From positions 5,910,236 through 5,974,235 of the forward strand of contig OZ251539.1 of the NCBI GenBank assembly GCA_965243135.1: a stretch of 64,000 bases of DNA, in the 5' to 3' direction. Positions 3,308-60,935 of the stretch are shown here, piece after piece. A program made the position numbers and the translations under genes. Position 1 is the stretch's first letter. The number at the start of each line of letters is the position of its first letter. A model generated the notes under the pieces. It was not told the DNA's origin and ran no database searches. It was given only the letters and a program-made list of their open reading frames with translations. The stretch comes from Alphaproteobacteria bacterium. Its GTDB lineage: Bacteria > Pseudomonadota > Alphaproteobacteria > MPNO01 > UBA830.

Positions 3308-3643
3308 CGGAGGGGTCTCGGCGAATTCGCGTTTTTGGAAGGAGGGGCTCGAACGGGGAGGCGACGCTTGCCGCGCGAGGACGGAGAGGATCGGTGCCGA
3401 CCGGTCCGCCACCTCGTCCGCACTGGCCCGGGCACTGAAGCCCAGGCGGCGGTCGTACACCCCTTCCGCTCCCTCGTCGCGCCAACGCCGGAAGATGCGC
3501 TCCGAAACGCCCAGCGTCTCCGCCGCCTCGCCTTGGCTCAGCGCCCCGGATGAGACACCTCCTTCCTCAGTCCCTGTTCCGTCCGCCGCTACCTCCTTGG
3601 TCTGGAAGCGTTTTAAACAGGGTACATGGACCGGACATATCAT
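3299..3643 (-). pseudogene. remnant: HTH-like segment fused to a short phage-integrase fragment
   Basis: The C-terminal ASADEVADRSAPILSVLARQA is nearly identical to ATPAAADRSAPILSVIMRQA in the integrase at 14440-15514. The upstream part (LSQGEAAETLGVSERIFRRWRDEG) looks like a transposase/excisionase-type HTH. No full domain is present. Confidence 0.4.
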
Positions 3644-3735
3644 CTGTCACTGACATCGCCGGGCGTTGCCGCTTGCATCCTCACCCAGCCGGGGCTAGAT
3701 TGCGGGCAGATACCCGCTGGCAGCGTGCTGTCAGC

Positions 3736-3775
3736 TCAAGGGCCGCTCCTCGGAGCGGCCCTTGCTTTTTTCCGG
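3736..3775 (+). terminator. rho-independent terminator-like hairpin
   Basis: GGGCCGCTCC-tcg-GGAGCGGCCC followed by TTGCTTTTTTCC on the + strand. Confidence 0.5.
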
Positions 3776-3783
3776 GGACGACC

Positions 3784-4554
3784 ATGAGAACGAGAGTCTA
3801 TGTCGACGGCTTCAACCTGTACTACGGAGCGCTCAAGGGGACGCCATTCAAGTGGCTGAATCTTGTCGATCTGGCGCGCCGGGTGCTGTCGGCGGGATAT
3901 GTCGTGGATAAGCTGCTTTACTTCACCGCCCATGTATCCGGGGTTTCGGACCCGGGGGCGCCGGCCCGTCAGCATGCCTATATCACCGCGCTCCGCACGC
4001 TGCCGGAGGTGGAAGTGCATTTCGGGAGCTTTCTCGCCAAGACGGTCTGGCGTCCGCTCGTCAACCTGCCGGTGGCTGGCCGGCGGATCGACGCACCTCG
4101 GCCCGTGACATTGCCCGCGGGCGATCACACGGTCGTTGGGCCACGGATGCAGACGCTGCCCGTGGGCCGATACCCCGCACCTGGCGCGGGAAGGAAGAGA
4201 CGAGGCAAGGCGTCCGCTCCGCTGCCGGACGCATTGGTCGCGGAGTTCCACGCCATGGAAGAGAAAGGCTCCGACGTGAATCTTGCGGCCCATCTCCTGA
4301 ACGATGCCTGGAGCGAGCTGTTCGAGGCGGCAGTCGTCGTCTCGAACGACACCGATCTTCTGACCCCTATCCGCATGGTGACCGCCGAGCGGAGGAAGCC
4401 GGTCATCATCGTGTATCCAGGACGATGGCAGGTCGCGCCGAAGCTGCGCGCCGCGGCGAGCCATGTGCGCCATATTCGCCCCGCGATGCTGAGAGGGGCG
4501 CAATTTCCTGACACGCTGCCGGGCACTGCGATCTCGAAGCCGACGGGCTGGTAA
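3784..4554 (+). CDS. NYN-domain (LabA-like, PIN-like) putative RNase
   Basis: MRTRVYVDGFNLYYG... then EEKGSDVNLAAHLL and VVVSNDTDL, the three acidic-residue motifs of the NYN fold. Start is the internal ATG of ORF 3550..4554. Confidence 0.7.
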   Translation: MRTRVYVDGFNLYYGALKGTPFKWLNLVDLARRVLSAGYVVDKLLYFTAHVSGVSDPGAPARQHAYITALRTLPEVEVHFGSFLAKTVWRPLVNLPVAGRRIDAPRPVTLPAGDHTVVGPRMQTLPVGRYPAPGAGRKRRGKASAPLPDALVAEFHAMEEKGSDVNLAAHLLNDAWSELFEAAVVVSNDTDLLTPIRMVTAERRKPVIIVYPGRWQVAPKLRAAASHVRHIRPAMLRGAQFPDTLPGTAISKPTGW

Positions 4555-4587: not shown

Positions 4588-4980
4588 GCGTTCGGTCGTG
4601 GGGTGAGGGTGTCGAAGCCCCGCCTCCGGGCAAGGTTTCAACCAGACATCCTTGACCGGGAAAGCGCGTTCGTTCCGGGTGCCTGAGGCGGCTCTGTTCG
4701 CCCCTGGTTGGCGACCCGGTAGCATGTTCCTCGCGGAGTAGACGTTCGTTTGCGGGCGGCTTGGCGCATGACTTCGCCGGGGGCTGGATACCCGCTTTAG
4801 ATTCCTGTTTGCGATAGCCATGTCGAGCGAACATGCACGCGCACTTCCCGGGACCGAGTTGTCGGGCGGCGGGCGGGCTCTGGCCGCGTTGCGACGGGAG
4901 AATGAGGCTTTTGGCCAAGCGCCGGAGACCACGGTCCAGAAAGCGGAGAAGCGGCGGGGATTTTCCGCCGGGCGACGGCC
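4588..4980 (+). mobile_element. IS66-family 5' remnant (left inverted repeat plus first ~47 codons of the transposase)
   Basis: GTAAGCGTTCGGTCGTGGGGTGA at 4588 matches the IS66-type terminal repeat seen at 18547, 43981 and 46896. ORF 4820.. starts MSSEHARALPGTELSGGGRALAALRRENEAFG like the other IS66 transposase N-termini, then breaks off at about 4980. Confidence 0.6.
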
Positions 4981-4984
4981 GCCG

Positions 4985-5197
4985 CAAGGCGAAACAAAGA
5001 TCCTCCTGAAGCTTCTTTTTGCGGTAATGCTGCAACAGATGATCGATGGCGGCCGATCCCGCTTCCGATGCGAAGGCGACTTCGAAATTCACATTCCGTT
5101 CCAGATGCGCCGCATGTGTTCGCTCAAATACGTTCGCATGCATTTTGTCGGCAACTGATCCCATAATGATCCGGGTGGCCGACTCATTGCGATCCAA
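4985..5197 (-). pseudogene. truncated third ORF of the Ubl/E2 operon (identity unknown)
   Basis: Only about 60 codons (…HANVFERTHAAHLERNVNFEVAFASEAGSAAIDHLLQHYRKKKLQEDL) before the sequence switches to the reverse complement of the IS66 remnant. Confidence 0.3.
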
Positions 5198-5472
5198 TTC
5201 CTTCCTCTCTTGTCCTGATAGCGATTATAGGCGCCTCCCCTCTCGTCATAGATGGGCGGGTTGATGTGAATCCAGTGAGGCGGATATTCCGGGTATCCGT
5301 TTTCCTGCATGCTAATGCCCAACGTTACCTCTCTGCCTTTATAGGCACCAACTTCAACTTTATACGGAAAGAAAATTGCAACAGGTCCATGAGGACTGTC
5401 TTGCAAGTCAGTCAAATATCCCAGAGATTTCAACTCGGATTGAATGCGCACAATGTCGTCGGACATTTGCAA
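5089..5472 (-). CDS. UBC/E2-like fold protein (prokaryotic E2 family, tentative)
   Basis: 127 aa, AT-rich (~48% GC). N-terminal helix IVRIQSELKSL resembles the E2 N-helix; YPEYPPHWIHINPP resembles the E2 YPF-x-PPK-hydrophobic pre-catalytic segment. No canonical HPN-Cys motif. Tightly coupled to the upstream gene (5473/5472). Confidence 0.4.
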   Translation of the reverse strand: MQMSDDIVRIQSELKSLGYLTDLQDSPHGPVAIFFPYKVEVGAYKGREVTLGISMQENGYPEYPPHWIHINPPIYDERGGAYNRYQDKRGRNWIAMSRPPGSLWDQLPTKCMRTYLSEHMRRIWNGM

Positions 5473-5826
5473 TCACGCGACAGGGGTGGAAGTATTGGGG
5501 ATGGTTATGAAATTATTGTCCCGATCCAGATAAACCCAGTCATCGAGCTTATATTCGGTCGCTTCGCCGCTTCGCGATACAAGAATATAGTTTTTCGGCG
5601 TTCCAGGGATCGCTCCTTTCTTTTTCGCATGGATCAAAATATCCTCTGCGACGAGTCTTTCGTGCACAGATTGCAATTTCTCGCCGTTTACCTCGAAAGG
5701 ATATGTTCGGTCGAGAGGATTTCTATGTTCGGATTTTCCAAGAGCGGCGTTCTTGAGAGGAGCGTCGATCTGTTTATCATCGTTGTTCACCGTATCGCTC
5801 CCGCATGGAGAACCCTTTGCGACCAA
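5473..5826 (-). CDS. multiubiquitin-like beta-grasp domain protein (tentative)
   Basis: 117 aa; YPFEVNGEKL...ITIP matches my recollection of the multiubiquitin domain (PF14452) found with E1/E2/JAB genes. AT-rich codon usage. Confidence 0.45.
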   Translation of the reverse strand: MVAKGSPCGSDTVNNDDKQIDAPLKNAALGKSEHRNPLDRTYPFEVNGEKLQSVHERLVAEDILIHAKKKGAIPGTPKNYILVSRSGEATEYKLDDWVYLDRDNNFITIPNTSTPVA

Positions 5827-6583
5827 GATATGGTGCTTTGCGGCGCACTGTCAATAGGAATATTTTGGTACTCGCCGTCGTCGGGCGGCGGTCGATCAAT
5901 GCCAGGGTTGCAGACCGCCGCGCTGCCGAACCATTGGGAGCACCTCGGAATGCGGATCTATTTTTGCCAAACTCCTTGTTTTTATTTACGGAATCGGGAT
6001 TTCCCCGTTAGGCAACGTTCAACGTCTGATTTTCGCTCGCATCCCCAGTCGCCACGCCGCCTCGAAGCGACCAGACTCTTCGAGACCCTTACACCCGACA
6101 AACGCAGGAGAGCACGGTCGCTTTCCCCACCCGTCGGCCCGCGGAGCTCGCCAAACAACCGCAGGAGCGGCGCTGGTTCGTCGAACAGTTGTGGAGCGAG
6201 CAGGCGGTCGGCATAGCCGAAGTGCGGCAAATTCTTTCTCGTTCTCGCCGTTGCCACCGGCACGCCCTGCCTCGGCGCTTCTCTGCTGCTTCCGGCCGCG
6301 TTCTGCTGGGCCGTTCGCCTCCACAACGCCGCAGGCAAGGTTGCGCCGTTGCTTGCCTGCCTGCGCGACCTGCAACGTAACTTCGAAACCGCTGTCGTTC
6401 TCGTCCGCCATGCCCGAGTGTGCACGGACACGATAATCGATGGAAACATTTGGAGAACTCGATCAAAAGGGTCCTGGCAGCGGCCATCCTGCGAGTTCAC
6501 TGGTTGCCTTCGGGCCAAACCATGGTGCTGCTGGCATCGGCAAGCGGTGACACGGAGCTAAAACTAGGGTTTTCTGGCGGACA

Positions 6584-6994
6584 CTAGGTCTGCCTGTGCC
6601 CCATAAAGATTTTTCTGGACTCTGGCCAGCCGATTCGTTACGGTGCCCGGCATGGAGTTCCAGAATCAGGTTCGGCAAAGCCTCCAGAACGATTTTGCGC
6701 GCTTGCAAGGGGTGCTGGCGAACGAGGTCTTCACTCGCCGCAGCGAGGTCGCGGGTGTGCGAAGCATTCGGGTTTGGGCTTGGCCGCCTGCAGCGAGCGG
6801 GCTGTCTGAAGGCGTTGGCGGAGTTTGAGGCGGCGGGACGGATTTCGCTGCCGTTGCCGACGCGCGGTGGCGCGTGGCGCCCGCGATGTCTTGCGAAGCC
6901 GGTTCCTCCACCGAAGAGCGTACCGGAGGAAGTCGGTGCGGTCGAGGGCCTGGAGTTGGTGCCGGTGACGGATGACGGGCATCGCCTGGTGTGA
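6584..6994 (+). mobile_element. left part of the split IS4/Tn5-like element (copy 1): inverted repeat plus 5' end of the DUF4338-like/transposase ORF
   Basis: IR CTAGGTCTGCCTGTGCCCCATAAAGATTTT at 6584; its partner is at 17542. ORF MPGMEFQNQV... parallels copy 2 at 40375 (with a frameshift). Similarity ends near 6994. Confidence 0.55.
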
Positions 6995-7195
6995 CCGCTC
7001 CGACACCCGGACTGACGACGAATCGACGCCCTAACCCTTTATGGCGCACATCCCTTTCTCGCGAATATCCGTGAATTTACGGCGGGTTGCGGCGAACGGC
7101 ACATCCCTTTTTTCGGGGCGTCGGGAGAGTTGCATTCGGGGAACTTTCTCGCGATACACCGAACTTGCGCAGCGCTCGTATCGTGTAAGCGTTCG

Positions 7196-8065
7196 CTACC
7201 CGGGTGATGATCTGCGATTGAGGACCTTCTTCCAGTCCCGCCGCAGGGGCCTCAACCAGATATCCTTGACCGGCAGCGCATACTCGTTTTTCACGTCGAG
7301 TTTGCCGCGGCCCTGCGTTTTGCCGGCCCGAATCCAGTTGGCCGCACGGTAGCAGGTTCCTTCGAAGCGCTGCGTTTCGCAGAAGGTCTCGAGCAGTACG
7401 GGACGCAGAGCGTAGCGGCGGTCCCAGTCGTCGGGCAAACGTTGCTCGACCTGTGCGAGGACGTGGGATGCAAGGCGTTTGATTCTGACCCAGGGCAGTA
7501 TGAGGAACCTTGCGTTGTTGACGACGAAAGGCAGATTGCGCTGACGGCATGTCCCAACCGATCAGCTTGTCCCGTGGCGCAATCTTCCACGCGGCGGCGC
7601 CGAAGCCGAGCACGGCCAGCGGTTCGCCCTCTGCGGAGCGGACGAAGTATCGCAGCTGTGCGCCGGGCATGGGCGTAAAGCCGAGGTAATGATAGCGGTC
7701 GATGAAGGCGTTCCAGAGACGGCCCTCGCTGGCGTTGCGGACGGGTTCGGTGCGCAGCGGACGGACTTGGTCGAGACGGTCGGGAGTTGGGAACGGGGGC
7801 GGCTCGGTTTCGGGAGACGGCGGAGCGGCGAACGCGGGCGGGCTGCGACGGCGGCAGAACGATGAGGCCGTCGCGTTCCATCCGCAACAGGGCGACGCGG
7901 GCGCTCATGTCTTTGACGCCGCCGTTGGGTTTGCGCCAGTCGAGACGCTCGCACAGGATGCGTGAAAGGGGCGTGCGTTTGAGAGGTGGGTTCCGTTGCG
8001 CGATCAAGTCGCGAATCAGGTTGAGTTCGTCCTCGGAGAAATCCCGCCCGCAATAACGATAGCTC
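7196..8065 (-). pseudogene. DUF4338-like IS-accessory protein, at least two frameshifts
   Basis: Pieces MSYRYCGRDFSEDELNLIR..., LAVLGFGAAAWKIAPRD..., NNARFLILPW..., and LLETFCETQRFEGTCYRAANW...GKTQGRGK are collinear with the intact 44008-44877 copy but lie in three frames. Confidence 0.6.
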
Positions 8066-8668
8066 ATGGCCCCTGCGGAGCCGCGGTGCGCCAGGTGCGG
8101 ACGCGCTCCGGGTCGGCGCCCCAGGGAAGCTAGGCATGCGCCTCTTCGGGCGCTCGTCCGCCATGTTCGGCGCAGGCTTGCAGATAATCGCGGAGCCAGT
8201 GGTGCGGCGAGAGGCCGGCCAGTTCGAGCGTACCGAATACGGAGAAGAGCAGCCCGGTCAGTTGCGCGCCCGCCTCGCTGAACGAGCCGAACGAGAGCTT
8301 GCGCCCAACAACCGCGCCGCGCAGGGCGCGCTCGGCAAGGTTGTTGTCCATCGGCACGGCTGTCGACGAAGACCTCCAAGCCTTCGCGATGACGCAGCAA
8401 GGACTGCAACGGCTTGCGCTGCGGCGCTTCCTCCGGCAGGTCGTCGAGTTGCCGCCTCGCGTCGTCGAAGAATGTGTTGCTCTCAAGCTCCCGTTGCGCC
8501 TCGTCGAAGGCGGCGGCTTGTTCTCTCGCTCCGGGGATCCAGTGCCGCAGCCGCTCGGCATTCCAACCGTACAGAGTCGCGATCTTGGCTACCCATTCAT
8601 CGCCGAAAGACTTCATGTCGGGACGCCCGACTCCGATGTCCATGAAGTCGCGGCGCACATGCGTCCAA

Positions 8669-9081
8669 TTATGTTGAATTCAACATAACTGGGCTTATGT
8701 TGCGGATCCAGTTATGTTGCGGAATGGTTGCAACGTACTGAAAAACAATAAAATCAGATCCATTTCCGCAACATAATATTTCGCAATCACAGTGCATCAA
8801 GAAAGGCCGTAAACCTTTTGTTCTCTTTCCACGGGCGAACCGACTCTGCGCAATGCCTGAGACAGTTCAGGCGTTCCTCAAGCAGCGGTGCGGCGCGATA
8901 GAAGGCTATGGCACCGTGATCGACAAACAGATCCTCGAACATGGTCGTATCTCCTTGTGGTCGGAGACATGACCATGGCAAACGAATGCGAATCCAAATA
9001 TTATGTTGCGGAAATGCGTTTGGTTCCGTTGTTTTTCAAGTCGTTAGCGCTCCTCCGCAACATAACTGGATCCGCAACATA
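8669..9081. mobile_element. MITE-like non-autonomous element (413 bp, AT-rich) with 6-bp target duplication
   Basis: Flanked by GTCCAA at 8663-8668 and 9082-9087. Termini are TTATGTTG...CAACATAA. Both ends carry TTATGTTGCGGATCCAGTTATGTTGCGGA in inverted orientation. At least 7 copies of the 12-mer TTATGTTGCGGA plus the perfect palindrome TTATGTTGAATTCAACATAA. It splits the transposase exactly between duplicated CW(T)(Y/H)V codons. Confidence 0.6.
8787..8942 (-). CDS. small ORF (51 aa) carried by the MITE, unknown function
   Basis: ATG at 8942 preceded by AAGGAG at a 7-nt spacing; MFEDLFVDHGAIAFYRAAPLLEERLNCLRHCAESVRPWKENKRFTAFLDAL. No family recognised. Confidence 0.3.
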   Translation of the reverse strand: MFEDLFVDHGAIAFYRAAPLLEERLNCLRHCAESVRPWKENKRFTAFLDAL

Positions 9082-10120
9082 AGTCCAACAGTAAACGAGC
9101 ACGAACTGGTCCGGCAGATCCTTCGCCAGCTTCTTGTAAGCGGAGTACCGGTCGCGATATACCGGCTCGTCGACGCCGAGGCCTCCGAACAACTTCTGCG
9201 CTGCCGCTGCGCTGCGGGAAGGGTCGATGATCATTCGCACGGCGTCCGAGGTCTGGCAAACCCAGAGCCAACTGCGGGGATTGTCGCCTTCCTCGCCGCG
9301 GACGTGAACCCTCCAGCTCGTCTCGTCGCCGTGGGCTATTCTGGCCGTTGCCTGACGTTCGATAATCGCATCGGCCAGCGGCGCGAACAAGGGCACGAAG
9401 CGCTTGACGCTGTCCCCCAGCGTACCTGGCGCGACCTCGAAGTCGAGCATCGACAACTGCCGCGGTACAGATCGCAACGGACGGTGAAGGGCGTAAGTCT
9501 CGGTCAGAAACCAGGTCCAGACGCTCAAGCCATAAGGCGTGTTCGCGAACAGCCGCGGCACCGGCGGAGCGATCGCCTCCTGCTTCGGTGCGCACGAGCA
9601 CGTCGAACGGTACCGGGGCCGGCGGCAACGCCGCTTGTAGGCGCGAAACTCGACCTCGACGAACTCGGTGACCTTTTCTCCGTTTCTCGCGTAAGGCTTG
9701 CCGCAGTTCGGGCAGCGGCATTCCTCAGGCTCAATGACCTCCACCTCTACCGGCAAATCCTCGCGCGGCGTGCGTCCGTGCGACGGCGACCCGGGCTGCC
9801 GCCCCCGACGCCGCCGGGCCTCTCGTTCCGCGCCGCCCTTCCGCGAACGGCGGGTGCGCTCGCTCTTGCGACCGAACTTGTCCCGAACAAGCTTGCGGTT
9901 GCGCGCCTTCAGGCGGGCGTTCTCGCGTTCGGTCTCGTCGAGTCGCTTCTTCGTCTTCGCAAGCTCGTGCCGAAGGCGGCCCGCTTCCCGCTTGAGCTCG
10001 TTCACCGAAGAGACGGACTTCAGGCGTTTCAGCTCGTTGCGCGCCGCCTCTGCGCGCGCCCGCGACCGGCGGTGCTGCGTTTTCCAGAACGTCGCCTGCT
10101 GACGAGCGCTTACCTCCTTC

Positions 10121-10270
10121 CAGCGCGACGCCTCCGCTTCCTGGCGCGACGCCTCCGCTTCCTGGCGCGACGCCTCCGCTTCCTGGCGCGACGCCTCCGC
10201 TTCCTGGCGCGCCTCGTCCCGCTGCCGAATCGCCTCGTCCCGCTGCCGAATCGCCTCGTCCCGCTGCCCG
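10121..10270. repeat. 21-bp tandem repeats inside the IS66 transposase N-terminal region (4 copies of one unit, then ~2.5 of a second)
   Basis: CTGGCGCGACGCCTCCGCTTC x4 then CGCCTCGTCCCGCTGCCGAAT x2.5; encodes QEAEASR x4 and QRDEAIR x2 in the transposase coiled-coil segment. Confidence 0.85.
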
Positions 10271-11629
10271 AGGGTCATTGCCAGCAGCAAGACCCACTGT
10301 CGGTCGGTCGCTTCGAAGCAAAAATCTGGTGTCGCCAACTCCATAAAGGCGATATACAGGGGTCAGCGAATCGTTTCCAGTCCCCGGGGCAAATTTTTTT
10401 CGTCCCCCGGGTAGCGAACGCTTACCGTATCGTTTCTCTTTCATGGCGCTCCAATCCACTGATATTGCGCCGGTTTTTCAGATTTATGCATATGTACAGG
10501 ACATATGGGGCTCAACCTTTCCTTTCCGGCGCTTCGAAGGTCCTGCAGGCCGCTTCGGTATCCTTTCCGAGGCCGTTATGTATGTGGCGAATGCGGACCG
10601 TGAAACGACGACAGCGCGCCGTGACCGACAGCGAGCGGGACGAGTTGAAGCGACGAGCGTGCCGGGGTCTCGCGCTTCGTCTTCGAGCGGCTGATGACCG
10701 AGCCGCCGGCCGCCTTGGAGCGGGCGGGCGTTAGCGGTTCTCTGCGAAGCGGAGAAAGCGCGCATGTCCGAAGAGGTCTGGCTGGGTCTGCGGCGCACGC
10801 CGCTCCGTCACCCGGTCATAGCTCCGGGTCATGAGAAGCCCCGTCTCGACGAAGCGCAGCCAGCATCGCCTCGTCGTGCGCCTTCACGACCCGCGACCGC
10901 TTGCTGGCGTAGACCAGACCTTCCGGCGACGCCGACTTCGGCGCCGAAAAGGTCACGGCCACCCCGGGCAGCTGCTCGTGCCTGCTGTCGCGCAGCCGTC
11001 CCAGCCGCCGACCGGTCCCCAACTCGGCAGCACCTGTGCAAACGCTTCGGCCGGACCGGGCCGCGCAACCTCAGAGCCGCCGCGCCGTCTCCTCCCGGAT
11101 GTCCGCCGCGGACGCCGCGCTCCCTCGCCGAACGCAGTTCTTCGACCGCCCGACGGAGTTCCGCCGCTGGCATCTCGGATTGTGAAGGAACGGCTTGCGG
11201 TGCCTGGCCGGTGCCAGCTCTCCAGCCAAAGCTCCCACCTTAAATCCTTCCCGCCGCGTCCCGGCCCCTGCGTCGCCGCAACCGTTGCCCGCTTCAGCTC
11301 CGCGCTTGCTCCCGTAGCAGACCCGGAAAACGGGCAACCGAGGGGGCGCGGCCGCCGACCGAAAATTCCGTCGGCGTTCCTCCCCCTCGTCCGGGGTCGT
11401 CAGGCAAAACTTTGAAATCGCCGGAGTCGCCCGAAAACCGGAAACGGGTTGGCGACGGGATCGTCAGTCAAGATAGTCGTCTCTTGGTCGTAGAAATGAA
11501 GCATGTCGGCAAGCTCGTTCACGTCACCGCCATGACTGCCCGCATGAAACGCCGGGAAAATTCTGAATCCAGAAGGATTTCGTGGACACACCAGTTACGA
11601 CAAGAAACCTTTCGAAAAATCGTGTTTTG

Positions 11630-12268: not shown

Positions 12269-13221
12269 GATATTCCTCCCATGGTCGCTCTCTCGGTATT
12301 CTAAAAGCGTGCGCGGCGTCTATTAACATGCAATGTAAAAGAGCATCTTTCATCCCGTCTGTCAACACTCGGAGGTCCCGTGAGGTTTGGAATGCAACAC
12401 GCATGGCGGCTGAGCGGCCGTTTGCATGTTGCGGAGAGGCCAGGCGCGGCGGAGGTCAAAACGGAGACTTGCGGCCACTTGGCCAGCGACGGACGTCGCC
12501 TGATCCACACGCTGCGCAGCGAACGCCGGGGCGGTTCGTCCGCGACCGCACGACGGCGAATCGGCTGGCAACGCGGACGAGCGTGGATTCAAGCAGGCCG
12601 GCCGGCGGGCAACCGCCCGCCACCTGCACAGCACCGTCGAGGCGTTGGCGCTACTTTGCACGACATATCCGCTACACGCCCATTTCTCCGGCACTTTCCA
12701 GAAGTGCGGAAAGCACGTCCCCGATCCGTTCGGCGGCCGCTTTTTGCGAAAAAAAGCTCGCGGCAGCGCCAGTCGCTTTGTCGCGAAGAGCGCCGACCTT
12801 GGCGACGCCCTTGACGCCGTCGCGCAGGACAACTCGGCACTTGTCGTCGGTTGGGACGATCGGACACTTCGCATTCGCGCGCGAAGTCGATCGCCCGTTC
12901 GTCTGGCCGGAACTTCGCGTCCAATTGTCGGGGGCGGCAACCAACTGCAGGTCGGGCCGCACTTCCGAACGTGAGCGACATCGGCGGTGAGCCGCCGTCA
13001 CCTTGCAGGCTTCCGGCGCAAGACTCAACGTTCTCTGCCGTCCGCGTTATGGAAGCTGACGGTCCCGCGGACGCCCGACACGCTTCCTTGTCGCTGTCGG
13101 AGCGAAGCGGAACCCCGTCGAGCGAGACGGTGCAGGAAGCCGCCTGTTTCCGCCTCGCGGGCCGCCCTGTCTTTCTCGTTCCAGTGCTTGCCCGCCTTTG
13201 TCGACAGACGCGCAACTGGAC

Positions 13222-13290
13222 GGGCCTCCCGGCTCCGTCCGTCGGCGTGCAGTGGCGCAGGAGCATCGCTGCGAGGCGCCGGACCCGTGA
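13222..13290. repeat. imperfect ~70-nt repeat, copy A (partner at 34938-35005)
   Basis: GGCTCCGTCC-GTCGGCGTGCAGTGGCGCAGGAGCATCGCTG...CCGGAC aligns at about 75-80% with the copy at 34938. Lies just 3' of the integrase at 13317. Confidence 0.4.
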
Positions 13291-13316
13291 GGTAGCCCAA
13301 GCTTTCGGCATCCACG

Positions 13317-14436
13317 CTACGCTGATGGTTCTTCCACGCCGTGCAGAAGTGAGGATATGGCGGTTCCGATCCGTTCGGCCGCGGCCTCCACCTCCCTGTC
13401 CGCGACATGCGCGTATCGAAGCGTCATCCGGACGTCCCGGTGGCCGAGCAGGCGCGCCACCACCGGCAGCGGAACGCCCTGCATAACCGCATGGCTGGCG
13501 AACGTATGCCGCAGATCGTGCAGGCGGACATCCTCCAGATCGGCCCGCTTCCTCGCTTCGTACCAGAGCCTGAGGTAATCGTCCGCCGGTCGCGCCGGGT
13601 CCGACGCCGACGGAAAGACATACGGGCTCTCCGTTTGCGGCTGGCGTTCGACGATGGCCCGGGCCTGCGCGTTCAGAAAGACCTTTCTCGGCCCCGTCTT
13701 GCCGTCCGCCAGGACGGCTCCGTCCACCTCCCGCCATTGCAGACGCACGATTTCGTTCTTCCGGCAGCCGGTCGCGAGCAACAGGCGGACGATGTCCGCC
13801 TGCCGCCTGCGGGACGGTCTCGCGGACGGCGGCGCGCACCTGTCCAGTTCCTCGCGCAGCCGGTGGATTTCCTCCCGCGACAGAAAGCGGGTGAGTTTCG
13901 GGCGCGGGTTTCTCCTGACGCCCGTTGCCGGATTCTTCTCGATCAGACCGGTCGCGACCGCGCGGTTCAGGATTTGCTTGAACACCTTCAAGGTCACGTT
14001 GGCGCCGCCGGGCGACGTCTTGCTGTACCGATCGAACCACCGGTTGACTTCGACCGCGGCGGTCGAGCGGCAGCGTACCGAAGGCCGGCAGCAACTGCCC
14101 GTTCAGCGCGCTTTCGATCCCCCGACGCGAAGCCCGCTTGTATCGCTCCCAACAGGCTTCTTTCCACGGACCCGCGACGAACTCCGCGAACGTGGGAACC
14201 TTCCCGCTCGGCTCCTTGACTGCGAGGCCGACGCATTCGCGGCGCGCCTCGTCGGTGCTTTTCAGCGCCGCCGGACCGAGCGACGCCTTCCGTCCGCCGC
14301 GAAGGTATATGTAACTGCGATGTCCCGACGGCCGGACACGGACGCCGAGGCCCGCGATGCGCTCGTCCCAGACCGTGTATTCGCGCTTGCGGGGCCGGAG
14401 CGCGGCGACCCGGGCGTCGGTCAGCCGGATTCTCAT
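13317..14436 (-). pseudogene. tyrosine recombinase/phage integrase (int1), single frameshift
   Basis: N-terminal arm-type domain (MRIRLTDARVAALRPRKREYTVWDERIAGLGVRV...LPAFGTLPLDR) in one frame. The rest (…AVEVNRWFDRYSKTSPGGANVTLKVFKQ…HDLRHTFAS…LGHRDVRMTLRYAH) is in another. The shift is at GACCGCCGCGG near 14050. Confidence 0.75.
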
Positions 14437-14439
14437 GCC

Positions 14440-15514
14440 TCAGCCCTCCAGCGCCGCGCCGACCGCCTCGACCGCTTCGCGGACCGTCCCGTCGGCCGCA
14501 TGCGCGTATTTGAGGGTCGTTTCCGGCCTGCTGTGACCGAGCAGCCGGCCGATGGTCAGCACGGTCTCGCCGTGCCTAAGCGCCATGCTCGCGTAGGTAT
14601 GGCGGAGGTCGTGCAGCCGGACGTCGCCAAGGTCCGCCTCGATTCTCGCAGGCCGCCAGAAACTGTCCAGCGAACTTTTGGCCAGGGGACCGGACGCAGA
14701 GGGGAAGATCCACTTGCCTCGCCGCTCCAGCCCGTCCAGGACGTGACGGGCGGCCGACGACAGCCACACGGTTCGCGGCCCCGTCTTGCCGTCCGCAAGG
14801 AACAGCTTGCCCTCGCGATAATCGATCCATCGCAGCGTCAGGATCTCGCTCTTGCGGCAGCCGGTCAGCAACAGCAGGCGGACGACCGCGACGCGCCGGT
14901 CGGGCTCGCGGCCCGCCAGAACCGCCTCGAGACGGCGGATCTCCGGAACCGTCAGGAACCGTTCGCGCCCTCGCCGGCGGTAGCGTCGGATGCCCTTGCA
15001 CGGGTTGCTGTCCTCCGGCCGGTAACCGTAGACCTCCGCCTGCCGCATGATGACCGACAGAATCGGCGCCGATCGGTCCGCCGCCGCGGGCGTCGCGTGC
15101 AGCGAAGCGAACCAGCGCTGGACGTCCTGCCGCGTTATCCTGGCGGCGTCCTTCGAACCATGGCAGGATCTGGTTCTTGTAATAGCCGCGGTTGACCTCG
15201 AGCGTGCGCGGTTTCCAGTGCCGCCCGTAACGCTCGAACACTTCTTCCGCGACCGCTTCGAACGACGACAACGCGCCGCCCGTCCCGCCGCGGGCCAGAA
15301 CGGCCTTCGCCCGCGTGCGGGCTTCTTCCGCGGCGATGTCCTTGCCGACGATCTTCCAGACGCGCCTGCCGTCTCGCTGGGTGTGAACGAAGTATCGCTT
15401 CCCGCCGGACGGAAGGACTCTGACGCCGAACCCCTTGAGCTCGCCATCGCGGACGTCGTAGGCGGCCTCGCGCGGCTCGAGAGCGTCGACTCTGCGCTGG
15501 TTGAGACGAACCAT
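14440..15514 (-). pseudogene. tyrosine recombinase/phage integrase (int2, paralog of int1), single frameshift
   Basis: MVRLNQRRVDALEPREAAYDVRDGELKGFGVRV...ILPWFEGRR in one frame, then ARITRQDVQRWF...HDLRHTYAS...LGHSRPETTLKYAH in another. The shift is at GACGCCGCCAGG near 15140. Confidence 0.75.
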
Positions 15515-60224: not shown

Positions 60225-60935
60225 TCAGATTCGCCCGCCAGGAGCAGGGCGGCCGTCGCGCGGTTGCCGCGCGTAGCGCATGAACGCGCTGGCGCGGCCC
60301 GCCGCTTTCGCTTTTTCCTCGAAACGCGTCGGCGGCCAGTCTTCCGGTCGGGTATGCGCGTACTCCGGTCCGAGGGGCGCGAAAGCGTCGTGATCGCGAA
60401 GAAGTTCGAGCATCCATTCAAGGTAATCGGCGTCGTCGGTCGCAATCCGAAGCTCCGCGCCGCCGCGCATGGTCGCCGCGAGACGGGACAGGGTCGACGC
60501 GTTCACGATGCGGCGCTTGCGATGGCGGGCTTTCGGCCAGGGATCCGGAAACAGGATGAAGACGCGGCCCAGAGAATCGTCCGGCAGGCGATCCAGCAGC
60601 AGCCGGGCGTCGTCGCGGTACAGCCTGATGTTGCGGAGGCCGCACCGCTCGATCCTCGTCGCGAGTTTCGCAGTTCCGGGGAGGAAGGGCTCGCAGCCGA
60701 TCATGCCGATGTCCGGATGGCGTTGCGCCTGCCAAGCCAGATGTTCGCCTCCGCCGAAGCCGATTTCCAGCCAGAGGTCTTCGACGCCTGCCGGGAACAG
60801 GCCGGCCGGGGCGAGCGGCGCCTCGTCCGGGACGATCTCCAGCTCGGGAAGGAGCCGGTTCACGAGGTCGCGTTGCCCTTGCCGCAATCGGCGTCCGCGC
60901 TGTCGACCGTACAGGATCCGGCGGCGTTCGGTCAC
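60225..60935 (-). CDS. trmB: tRNA (guanine-N7)-methyltransferase
   Basis: EIGFGGGEHL...FPDPWPK. Confidence 0.85.
   Translation of the reverse strand: MTERRRILYGRQRGRRLRQGQRDLVNRLLPELEIVPDEAPLAPAGLFPAGVEDLWLEIGFGGGEHLAWQAQRHPDIGMIGCEPFLPGTAKLATRIERCGLRNIRLYRDDARLLLDRLPDDSLGRVFILFPDPWPKARHRKRRIVNASTLSRLAATMRGGAELRIATDDADYLEWMLELLRDHDAFAPLGPEYAHTRPEDWPPTRFEEKAKAAGRASAFMRYARQPRDGRPAPGGRI

Follow-up and report, generated by a model that had tools for sequence, protein, structure and literature searches.

An AT-rich insert of 414 bp within an IS66 transposase gene of the window (the whole 64-kb stretch of DNA analysed here, in whose coordinates all positions are given) is best explained as a RIT element that has lost its interior by deletion, and which, either itself or as its full-length parent, was very probably placed at the C-W-x codons of the IS66 gene by RIT recombinases, presumably through a conservative 6-bp exchange. 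It shares its ends with full-length RIT elements and has lost all three of their genes except about 33 and 17 codons. Below we describe the insert and the gene that it interrupts, its full-length relatives and the reading frame left inside it, the layout of ends and short flanking sequences across the family, and the histories that could have produced it.

The insert and the interrupted IS66 gene

The features of the locus are listed by position and strand, with P and S used hereafter for the palindrome and the internal 6-mer, "near" and "far" referring to the sides with and without P, and L045 being a full-length relative of the insert.

8130-10344, minus strand: host IS66-family transposase gene, interrupted by the insert and carrying a frameshift near 8360
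8663-8668, no strand: near flanking 6-mer GTCCAA, adjoining P; TTGGAC in the IS66 sense, covering the C-W-T codons
8669-8688, no strand: P, perfect 20-bp palindrome TTATGTTGAATTCAACATAA, at one end only
8689-8694, no strand: S, internal 6-mer CTGGGC, between P and the inverted repeat
8695-8781, plus strand: ritC-side inverted repeat, with the 12-mer TTATGTTGCGGA at 8695, again 17 bp on in the same direction at 8712, and as an inverted copy at 8765; blastn match to the ritC end of L045
8787-8942, minus strand: 51-codon ORF read as a fusion, RitA N-terminus at about 8942-8848 and RitC C-terminal tail at about 8838-8787
8940-8977, minus strand: ritA translation-initiation region, AAGGAG (8956-8951) and ATG (8942-8940) paired in a predicted hairpin
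8996-9082, minus strand: ritA-side inverted repeat, with direct 12-mers at 9071 and 9054 and an inverted one at 9001
9083-9088, no strand: far flanking 6-mer GTCCAA, on the side without P
Empty IS66 site: ...TACTGTTGGACGCATGTG...

By sequence inspection the insert spans 8669-9082 and is thus one base pair longer than the 413 bp first given for it; its G+C content is 46%, compared with 66% in the flanks. It starts with TTATGTTG and finishes with CAACATAA, the termini being TTATG...CATAA and not TG...CA. The direct GTCCAA flanks reported by the sequence-only reading were located at 8663-8668 and 9083-9088, and TTATGTTGCGGATCCAGTTATGTTGCGGA does occur at both ends in inverted orientation (8695-8723 and 9054-9082), as part of terminal repeats that extend to ~87 bp and are imperfect (8695-8781 against 8996-9082, with 70 of 87 positions matching). 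The left end is longer by 26 bp, made up of P, which is the perfect 20-bp palindrome claimed earlier, and CTGGGC; the arms of P are the terminal 8-mer of the inverted repeats. Exact copies of the 12-mer, presumed to be recombinase-binding sites, number six (plus orientation at 8695, 8712 and 9001, minus at 8765, 9054 and 9071), and the earlier figure of at least seven is reached only if the two 8-mer half-copies within P are included. When at most one mismatch is allowed, the window holds seven matches, namely the six exact ones and an unrelated one-mismatch match at 60626, for a chance expectation of 0.12, and seven matches were reached in none of 100 shuffles.

The insertion is as precise as had been proposed. 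Deleting 8669-9088 in silico, that is the insert plus one GTCCAA, gives a single frame, ...LVYCWTHVRRDF..., which also covers ...PDQFVLVYCWTHVRRDFMDIG... and gives one unbroken match to Pfam DDE_Tnp_IS66 (E 2.9e-47), with the interruption falling at the conserved C-W-x-H codons of the IS66 transposase. Among the intact homologues retrieved (42-50% identity) 113 have a contiguous CWxHxRRxF motif, and distant plasmid IS66 transposases likewise align unbroken over the junction. The segment is therefore not native to IS66 relatives, and the possibility raised together with the insertion reading, that intact copies of this transposase naturally hold the segment, has no example among the 113. A blastn search of PLSDB plasmids with the reconstructed empty site gave no match. 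The host IS66 is accompanied by a fragmented DruA-like gene and is itself decaying.

RIT relatives and the 51-codon reading frame

Relatives were sought in one genome per species, and in metagenomes, with the end pattern TTATGTTGCGG-N6-TTATGTTGCGG, which occurs at 44 genome loci from many phyla and at 51 metagenome loci, about 95 public loci together. On contigs that include both ends, these are mostly inverted and ~3.4 kb apart (3361-3414 bp between the ends in full-length relatives), and they enclose three tandem genes that overlap by 4-8 bp and encode proteins of about 410, 315 and 330 aa. All three proteins, RitA, RitB and RitC, are Xer-like tyrosine recombinases. The search that the sequence-only reading had suggested, for autonomous parents carrying such ends, is hence answered by RIT elements of ~3.4 kb, and an affinity of the ends with those of Tn7/Mu-like or Tc1-like elements is rejected, same-ended elements encoding three tandem tyrosine recombinases.

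RIT elements are reportedly treated in Van Houdt et al. 2009 and in Ricker et al. 2013 (Plasmid 70:226); the latter lies outside the RIT literature searched, in which no mention of a miniature RIT derivative was found, and may already describe some of the end features. We compared the trios of three relatives, L024, L022 and L057, with that of the Cupriavidus necator plasmid pHG1 (record coordinates 131433-134607), and each protein best matches its positional pHG1 counterpart, with 31-40% identity and E values of 1e-31 to 1e-60. The pHG1 ends contain TTATGCCG twice, 17 bp apart, and then CGGCATAA further inside, and so have the same layout of two direct repeats plus an inverted one as the family of the insert, but with another motif. 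The name RIT (recombinase in trio) was introduced for a group of elements that includes the pHG1 trio, and a palindrome overlapping the terminal inverted repeat is already in the RIT literature (PMC2864759, PMC3414803).

The window copy has the inverted repeats and palindrome of a RIT in a unit that deletion has shortened to 414 bp from the 3.4-3.5 kb usual for a RIT, but of the ritA-ritB-ritC trio it has only a 51-codon RitA'-'RitC fusion; consistent with the earlier statement that the window contains no cognate enzyme, no RIT trio was found anywhere in the 64 kb. Since relatives with the same ends have the trio and the window copy lacks it, we regard the latter as a non-autonomous deletion derivative.

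The ORF at 8942-8787 (minus strand) and its AAGGAG at 8956-8951 are both present as described, but the ORF, which had been left unassigned, can be assigned to remnants of two recombinases. Its first 38 residues match the N-terminus of RitA in tblastn (71% identity and E 4e-10 with L024; 66% identity and E 7e-12 with L045), and its tail, VRPWKENKRFTAFLDAL, corresponds to the RitC C-terminus, DRPWKQNKGIMAFLGAL in L045. At the DNA level, 8848-9018 of the window corresponds to the start of L045 ritA and the region upstream (76%), and 8689-8838 to the ritC-side end of L045 together with the final ~50 nt of its ritC (69%, blastn), with the deletion junction lying between 8838 and 8848. The distances from end to ATG (140 bp) and from end to stop (~92 bp) in the insert equal those in L045. 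Given these matches to both RitA and RitC, we read the ORF as what is left after an internal deletion of ~3 kb, by which ritA was cut at codon ~33 and fused in frame to the final ~17 codons of ritC. The ribosome-binding site (RBS) AAGGAG is that of ritA itself. On folding, the hairpin over this site and the ATG has a predicted energy of -25.5 kcal/mol (z -3.7), and it recurs in L045 and L024, where the stem strands change in paired fashion.

A Pfam scan of the 51-codon ORF found no domain, and a search for contigs with an identical 51-aa product found none on record. The protein remnants are short, at 38 aa and about 17 aa. The sole other relative of the ORF in the protein database, P0002, is the N-terminal stump of L045 ritA, a gene that is interrupted by an IS3-family element. 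A second mini-RIT of 462 bp (L009), which is independent of the window element, likewise has an in-frame RitA'-'RitC fusion and has lost its start codon; we therefore assign no function to the 51-aa peptide.

Target sites, end layout and 6-mers across the family

L045, from another genome, occupies the same C-W-x codons in the transposase gene of a related IS66, downstream of which there is likewise a DruA-like gene. Fixed sites are also seen in other lineages that share the 12-mer, at the ...LQxDxYAG|Y/F codons of IS66 and at the ...GYxYS|R codons of IS21 IstA. At Longimicrobiales loci the insertion is in a hairpin beside a group II intron reverse transcriptase, which looks like domain V of the group II intron (GAGCCGGAUGCGGGAA|AUCCGCACGUCCGGUUC). 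RITs inside an IS66 tnpA gene and a Tn6049-type transposase gene have already been reported, an IS66 tnpA gene being inactivated by a RIT in C. metallidurans CH34 (PMC2864759, PMC3414803).

In the direction of the target gene, the order along a complete copy is T_L, far 6-mer, body with its inverted repeats, x, P, near 6-mer and T_R, where x is the 6-mer adjoining P on the body side, the reverse complement of S. The module of a 20-bp near-palindrome between two 6-mers is present in about 45 related ends. Ends that bear P adjoin the downstream part of the target (11 labelled IS21-downstream, 8 IS66-downstream and 5 ambiguous, being both IS21-downstream and IS66-upstream) and none is labelled upstream only, whereas ends without P adjoin the upstream part (23 IS21, 11 IS66); three apparent exceptions to this polarity are asymmetric palindromes missed by the filter. 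Relative to P, both orientations of the ritABC body occur. Two copies have P at both ends (L033, L046) and one at neither (L081), which shows that ends are also reshuffled by exchange between copies and counts against the model of transposition given below.

The L057 locus, in which an inverted-repeat end, CAGGAA, P, TTCCTG and an inverted-repeat start follow one another, was considered as a circle junction and rejected, both arms being the ritC-side repeat in a tail-to-tail palindrome. Together with the contigs of L052 and L069, which have the same outside flank, inverted, at both ends, these tail-to-tail arms indicate that the L057 pattern is probably an artefact of assembly fold-back at inverted repeats.

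We compared the 6-mers of 16 complete, coherent copies. In 10 of them the far 6-mer equals the near one and in the remaining 6 it does not, with 5 of 6 positions matching in L022, L090 and L077, 4 of 6 in L083 (with which L087 is grouped, also with unequal flanks) and L023, and 2 of 6 in L094. In this last copy the far 6-mer is CAGCAG and the near one TTCCTG, and the IS21 frame is open only with CAGCAG, since TTCCTG would create a stop codon. L094 carries the foreign palindromic module CAGGAA-P-TTCCTG; at the same IS21 site L088 has CTGCTG-P-CAGCAG. As for x, 8 of the 16 copies have it as the reverse complement of their near 6-mer, a single copy as that of the far one alone, and 7 as that of neither, and where it is unlike both flanks it matches 6-mers at other alleles of the same target. 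Accordingly S is often the reverse complement of an other-allele 6-mer (L031, L076/L083/L087, L077 and the window). In the window S (CTGGGC) reads like the common IS66 C-W-A allele, and both flanks, TTGGAC in the sense direction, read C-W-T, the current target; we infer that S was carried over from an earlier insertion site.

Two other accounts of S were considered and dropped. One has S made afresh from the target at each insertion, yet in 7 of 16 copies S is unlike the flanks and matches other target alleles; the other has S as a slowly evolving, fixed part of the element, yet near-identical elements carry CAGGAA, CTGCTG and CGGCTG.

Alternative histories and a tentative model of transposition

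The insert had been read as bearing a 6-bp target duplication. The identical GTCCAA flanks are indeed there, but the flanks of relatives differ (as in L094 and L083), and from these unequal flanks and the other-allele S we prefer the view that the flanking 6-mers represent coupling (crossover) sequences of a tyrosine recombinase, which they would fit better than a true target duplication. It is unlikely that RIT insertion duplicates 6 bp by a staggered cut and that unequal flanks arose later through recombination or mutation. Identical flanks in 10 of 16 complete copies are what such duplication would give, and they include the rare alleles of L031 (CGTGAA) and of the window (TTGGAC), in both of which S differs. 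L094, however, shares both IS21 flanks with L088 and yet has its foreign module; homologous exchange would have swapped the downstream flank too, and this flank is unswapped, which counts against a later origin by recombination, and unequal flanks are found in L083/L087, L023, L077, L022 and L090 as well. Still further from the data, and highly improbable, is a MITE derived from a DDE transposon (Tn7, Mu, IS21 or Tc1-like) with a genuine 6-bp target-site duplication: multiple subterminal repeats and identical 6-bp flanks do recall such elements, but the full-length relatives all carry genes for three tyrosine recombinases and none for a DDE enzyme, the ORF consists of remnants of RitA and RitC, the termini are other than TG...CA, and flanking 6-mers in relatives can be unequal.

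A separate matter is whether the 414-bp form has itself moved. The 64-kb window has one copy of it and the public collections searched have none: PLSDB plasmids gave no blastn match to the element, and its exact 29-mer end had 0 matches in metagenomes and none in species-representative genomes. The description "MITE-like" is thus apt for its small size, non-coding character, inverted repeats, non-autonomy and derivation from an autonomous parent, and not for an amplified family, a single copy being known. By a slight preference we favour a full-length RIT that inserted and was later deleted in place, the mini form never having moved, as the element is single-copy, its host IS66 is decaying (the frameshift near 8360 and the fragmented DruA-like gene) and mini forms are rare, at 2 of ~60 elements sampled; the perfect repeats and intact RBS hairpin, which might be set against a deletion in place, argue only for a recent event. 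That the 414-bp form is instead an active, amplified MITE, transposing repeatedly in this genome with resident RIT recombinases, seems rather doubtful. All of its cis elements are intact, with six identical 12-mers and both P and S present; S is unlike the current flanks, which suggests at least one earlier site, and both flanks have the rare C-W-T allele, as expected from a donor copy of the same IS66. Against this, no second copy was found in the collections searched, and S may record moves of the full-length parent that preceded its deletion. The L009 mini-RIT, moreover, is single-copy in a complete chromosome that has no other match to the end pattern, and hence no cognate full-length RIT was detected there.

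For the preferred reading, a deleted RIT placed by RIT recombinases, we infer a route of transposition from comparative sequence patterns. The element, or its full-length parent, would have been delivered by these recombinases to a preferred site, the IS66 C-W-x codons, with RITs moving by conservative tyrosine-recombinase strand exchange over a 6-bp overlap and no target duplication. The recombining joint would consist of a P arm, 6 bp and an inverted-repeat end, CAACATAA-N6-TTATGTTG, which is shaped like a recombinase core site. The 6-mers would be coupling sequences brought from the donor, the overlap tolerating heterology, and each junction would begin as a donor/target heteroduplex that then segregates either way; both arrangements are present, one in L094 and L023 and the other in L090. 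The window flanks may match as donor and target were the same type of IS66 site, with S keeping an older allele. Two such joints would flank P as mirror images, with either usable, and use of either joint would account for the fixed polarity of P to the target, for a body facing both ways and for an internal 6-mer that is the reverse complement of an earlier site. The mini element would now be movable only with cognate RitABC supplied in trans. One prediction of a two-core arrangement, that the orientation of the palindrome tracks that of the body, fails, as L005 and L024 share palindrome orientation and have opposite bodies.

Taken as a whole, the following proposal is tentative, and we put its chances somewhat below even: RITs would be site-specific parasites of mobile elements (IS66 and IS21 transposase codons, a domain V-like hairpin) that use a conservative 6-bp exchange at either mirror joint beside the 20-bp palindrome, their 6-mers would record the prior site or sites, and the 414-bp element would be a trans-mobilisable minimal substrate with all cis sites.

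RITs are widespread across bacterial phyla, and how they move, how they choose targets and why they need three recombinases remain to be explained (PMC10214605, PMC5737581, PMC3414803); RIT transposition has never been reproduced experimentally (PMC10214605). RITs are already known as a kind, and the window element is of interest mainly as a minimal substrate and as an entry to a testable model of transposition. A 414-bp derivative with both ends marks out the cis sequences, namely three 12-mers per end, the 20-bp palindrome and the 6-bp spacers, and is small enough to be synthesised and tested with RitABC in trans. Comparison across the family, in which RITs repeatedly strike the same conserved codons of other transposons' genes, leads to a falsifiable model with 6-bp coupling, no obligatory duplication, a palindrome-centred joint and a fixed polarity to the target.

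Among known systems, Tn554 and SE (strand-biased circularizing integrative elements) carry a 6-bp donor-flank sequence into the new site (PMC10214605). Tn554, SE and GInts are, like RIT, multi-recombinase tyrosine transposons that are site-specific and for which target duplication is not obligatory, but their gene sets (TnpABC; IntA/Tfp/IntB/Srap) are unlike that of RIT, a 20-bp palindrome module or long inverted repeats are not described for the three, and in RIT the carried 6-mers flank a palindrome on either side. The coupling sequences of Tn916 and CTnDOT are also comparable, in that a 6-bp staggered exchange tolerates heterology and the flanks may or may not match; both elements are large and conjugative, use a single integrase plus Xis, and are not known to have terminal inverted repeats of the RIT type. 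Bacterial MITEs, derived from DDE insertion sequences, resemble the window element in being small, internally deleted and without an enzyme of their own, and in having terminal inverted repeats; the window element differs from them in that its parent has a trio of tyrosine recombinases, a single copy of it is known and its flanking repeat is probably not a duplication.

Palindrome module and atypical ends of RIT copies

Among the genome and metagenome loci with RIT (recombinase-in-trio) ends, designated by L-numbers, atypical placement of the palindrome module (the 20-bp palindrome with its adjacent 6-mers, usually at one end) was found in the following copies:

L033, 3436-6803
L046, 5852-9236
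L081, 783-4167

Some RIT copies carry the module at both ends and lie between two downstream target halves that differ from each other, and others lack it at either end and lie between two upstream target halves, as expected for inversions between two inverted RIT copies. Copies of one lineage that share a target site can carry the 20-bp palindrome with its asymmetric centre in either orientation, as in TTCAACTGCA and TGCAGTTGAA (loci compared: L018, L034 and L078 versus L025, L026 and L084; L053 versus L070). Two metagenome contigs, L052 and L069, have an identical outside flank at both RIT ends in inverted orientation, and another, L057, has a palindromic, tail-to-tail joint. These patterns are probably assembly artefacts at inverted repeats, and single short contigs therefore call for caution.

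Hairpins at the ritA start and at a target site

At the start of ritA, the ribosome-binding site and start codon are paired with an upstream segment in a hairpin:

Window, 8940-8977
L045 (full-length RIT within a related IS66), 4965-5003
L024 (Longimicrobiales), 1903-1944

The hairpin is conserved across these three diverged lineages, with paired changes in both stem strands, and may limit translation of read-through transcripts. A different hairpin hosts the Longimicrobiales RITs, whose insertion sites lie in its loop (L024, 1767-1798 and 5211-5240; also L027, L029 and L031). We take this target to resemble group II intron domain V; a reverse transcriptase/maturase ORF adjoins it (L024, 5237-6607).

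IS66 host genes and their DruA-like neighbours

Two features accompany the IS66 transposase gene of the window:

7077-8060, - strand, DruA-like gene (Pfam PF14236, E 1e-24), downstream of the transposase
10123-10268, a pair of perfect tandem arrays of a 21-bp unit, one of 4.2 copies and one of 2.8, within the transposase N-terminal coding region

The coding parts of the DruA-like gene are scattered across several reading frames, and it is therefore a pseudogene. The arrays code for the heptad repeats QEAEASR and QRDEAIR. The RIT of L045 is likewise flanked by an IS66 and DruA pair (3353-4234). Its ritA is split by an IS3-family element (HTH_Tnp_1 and rve; 5175-6770), so that mobile elements are nested three deep. 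Adjoining the RIT insertion point of L045, TGCTGG is in tandem duplicate (C-W-C-W; 9929-9950, IS66 sense strand ...CTGTGCTGGTGCTGGGT); an earlier RIT could have left it there as a 6-bp footprint, or it could be a mere variant.

Other probably foreign or decayed DNA in the window

12589-15514, - strand, two tandem integrase genes

In each gene the N-terminal and catalytic parts are in different reading frames, and both are therefore probably pseudogenes. They are weakly similar to RitA and RitC (24-28% identity) but do not form a RIT trio. G+C falls to 0.39-0.50 at 35001-39000 and 5001-6000, far below the background of ~0.65, which suggests foreign DNA.
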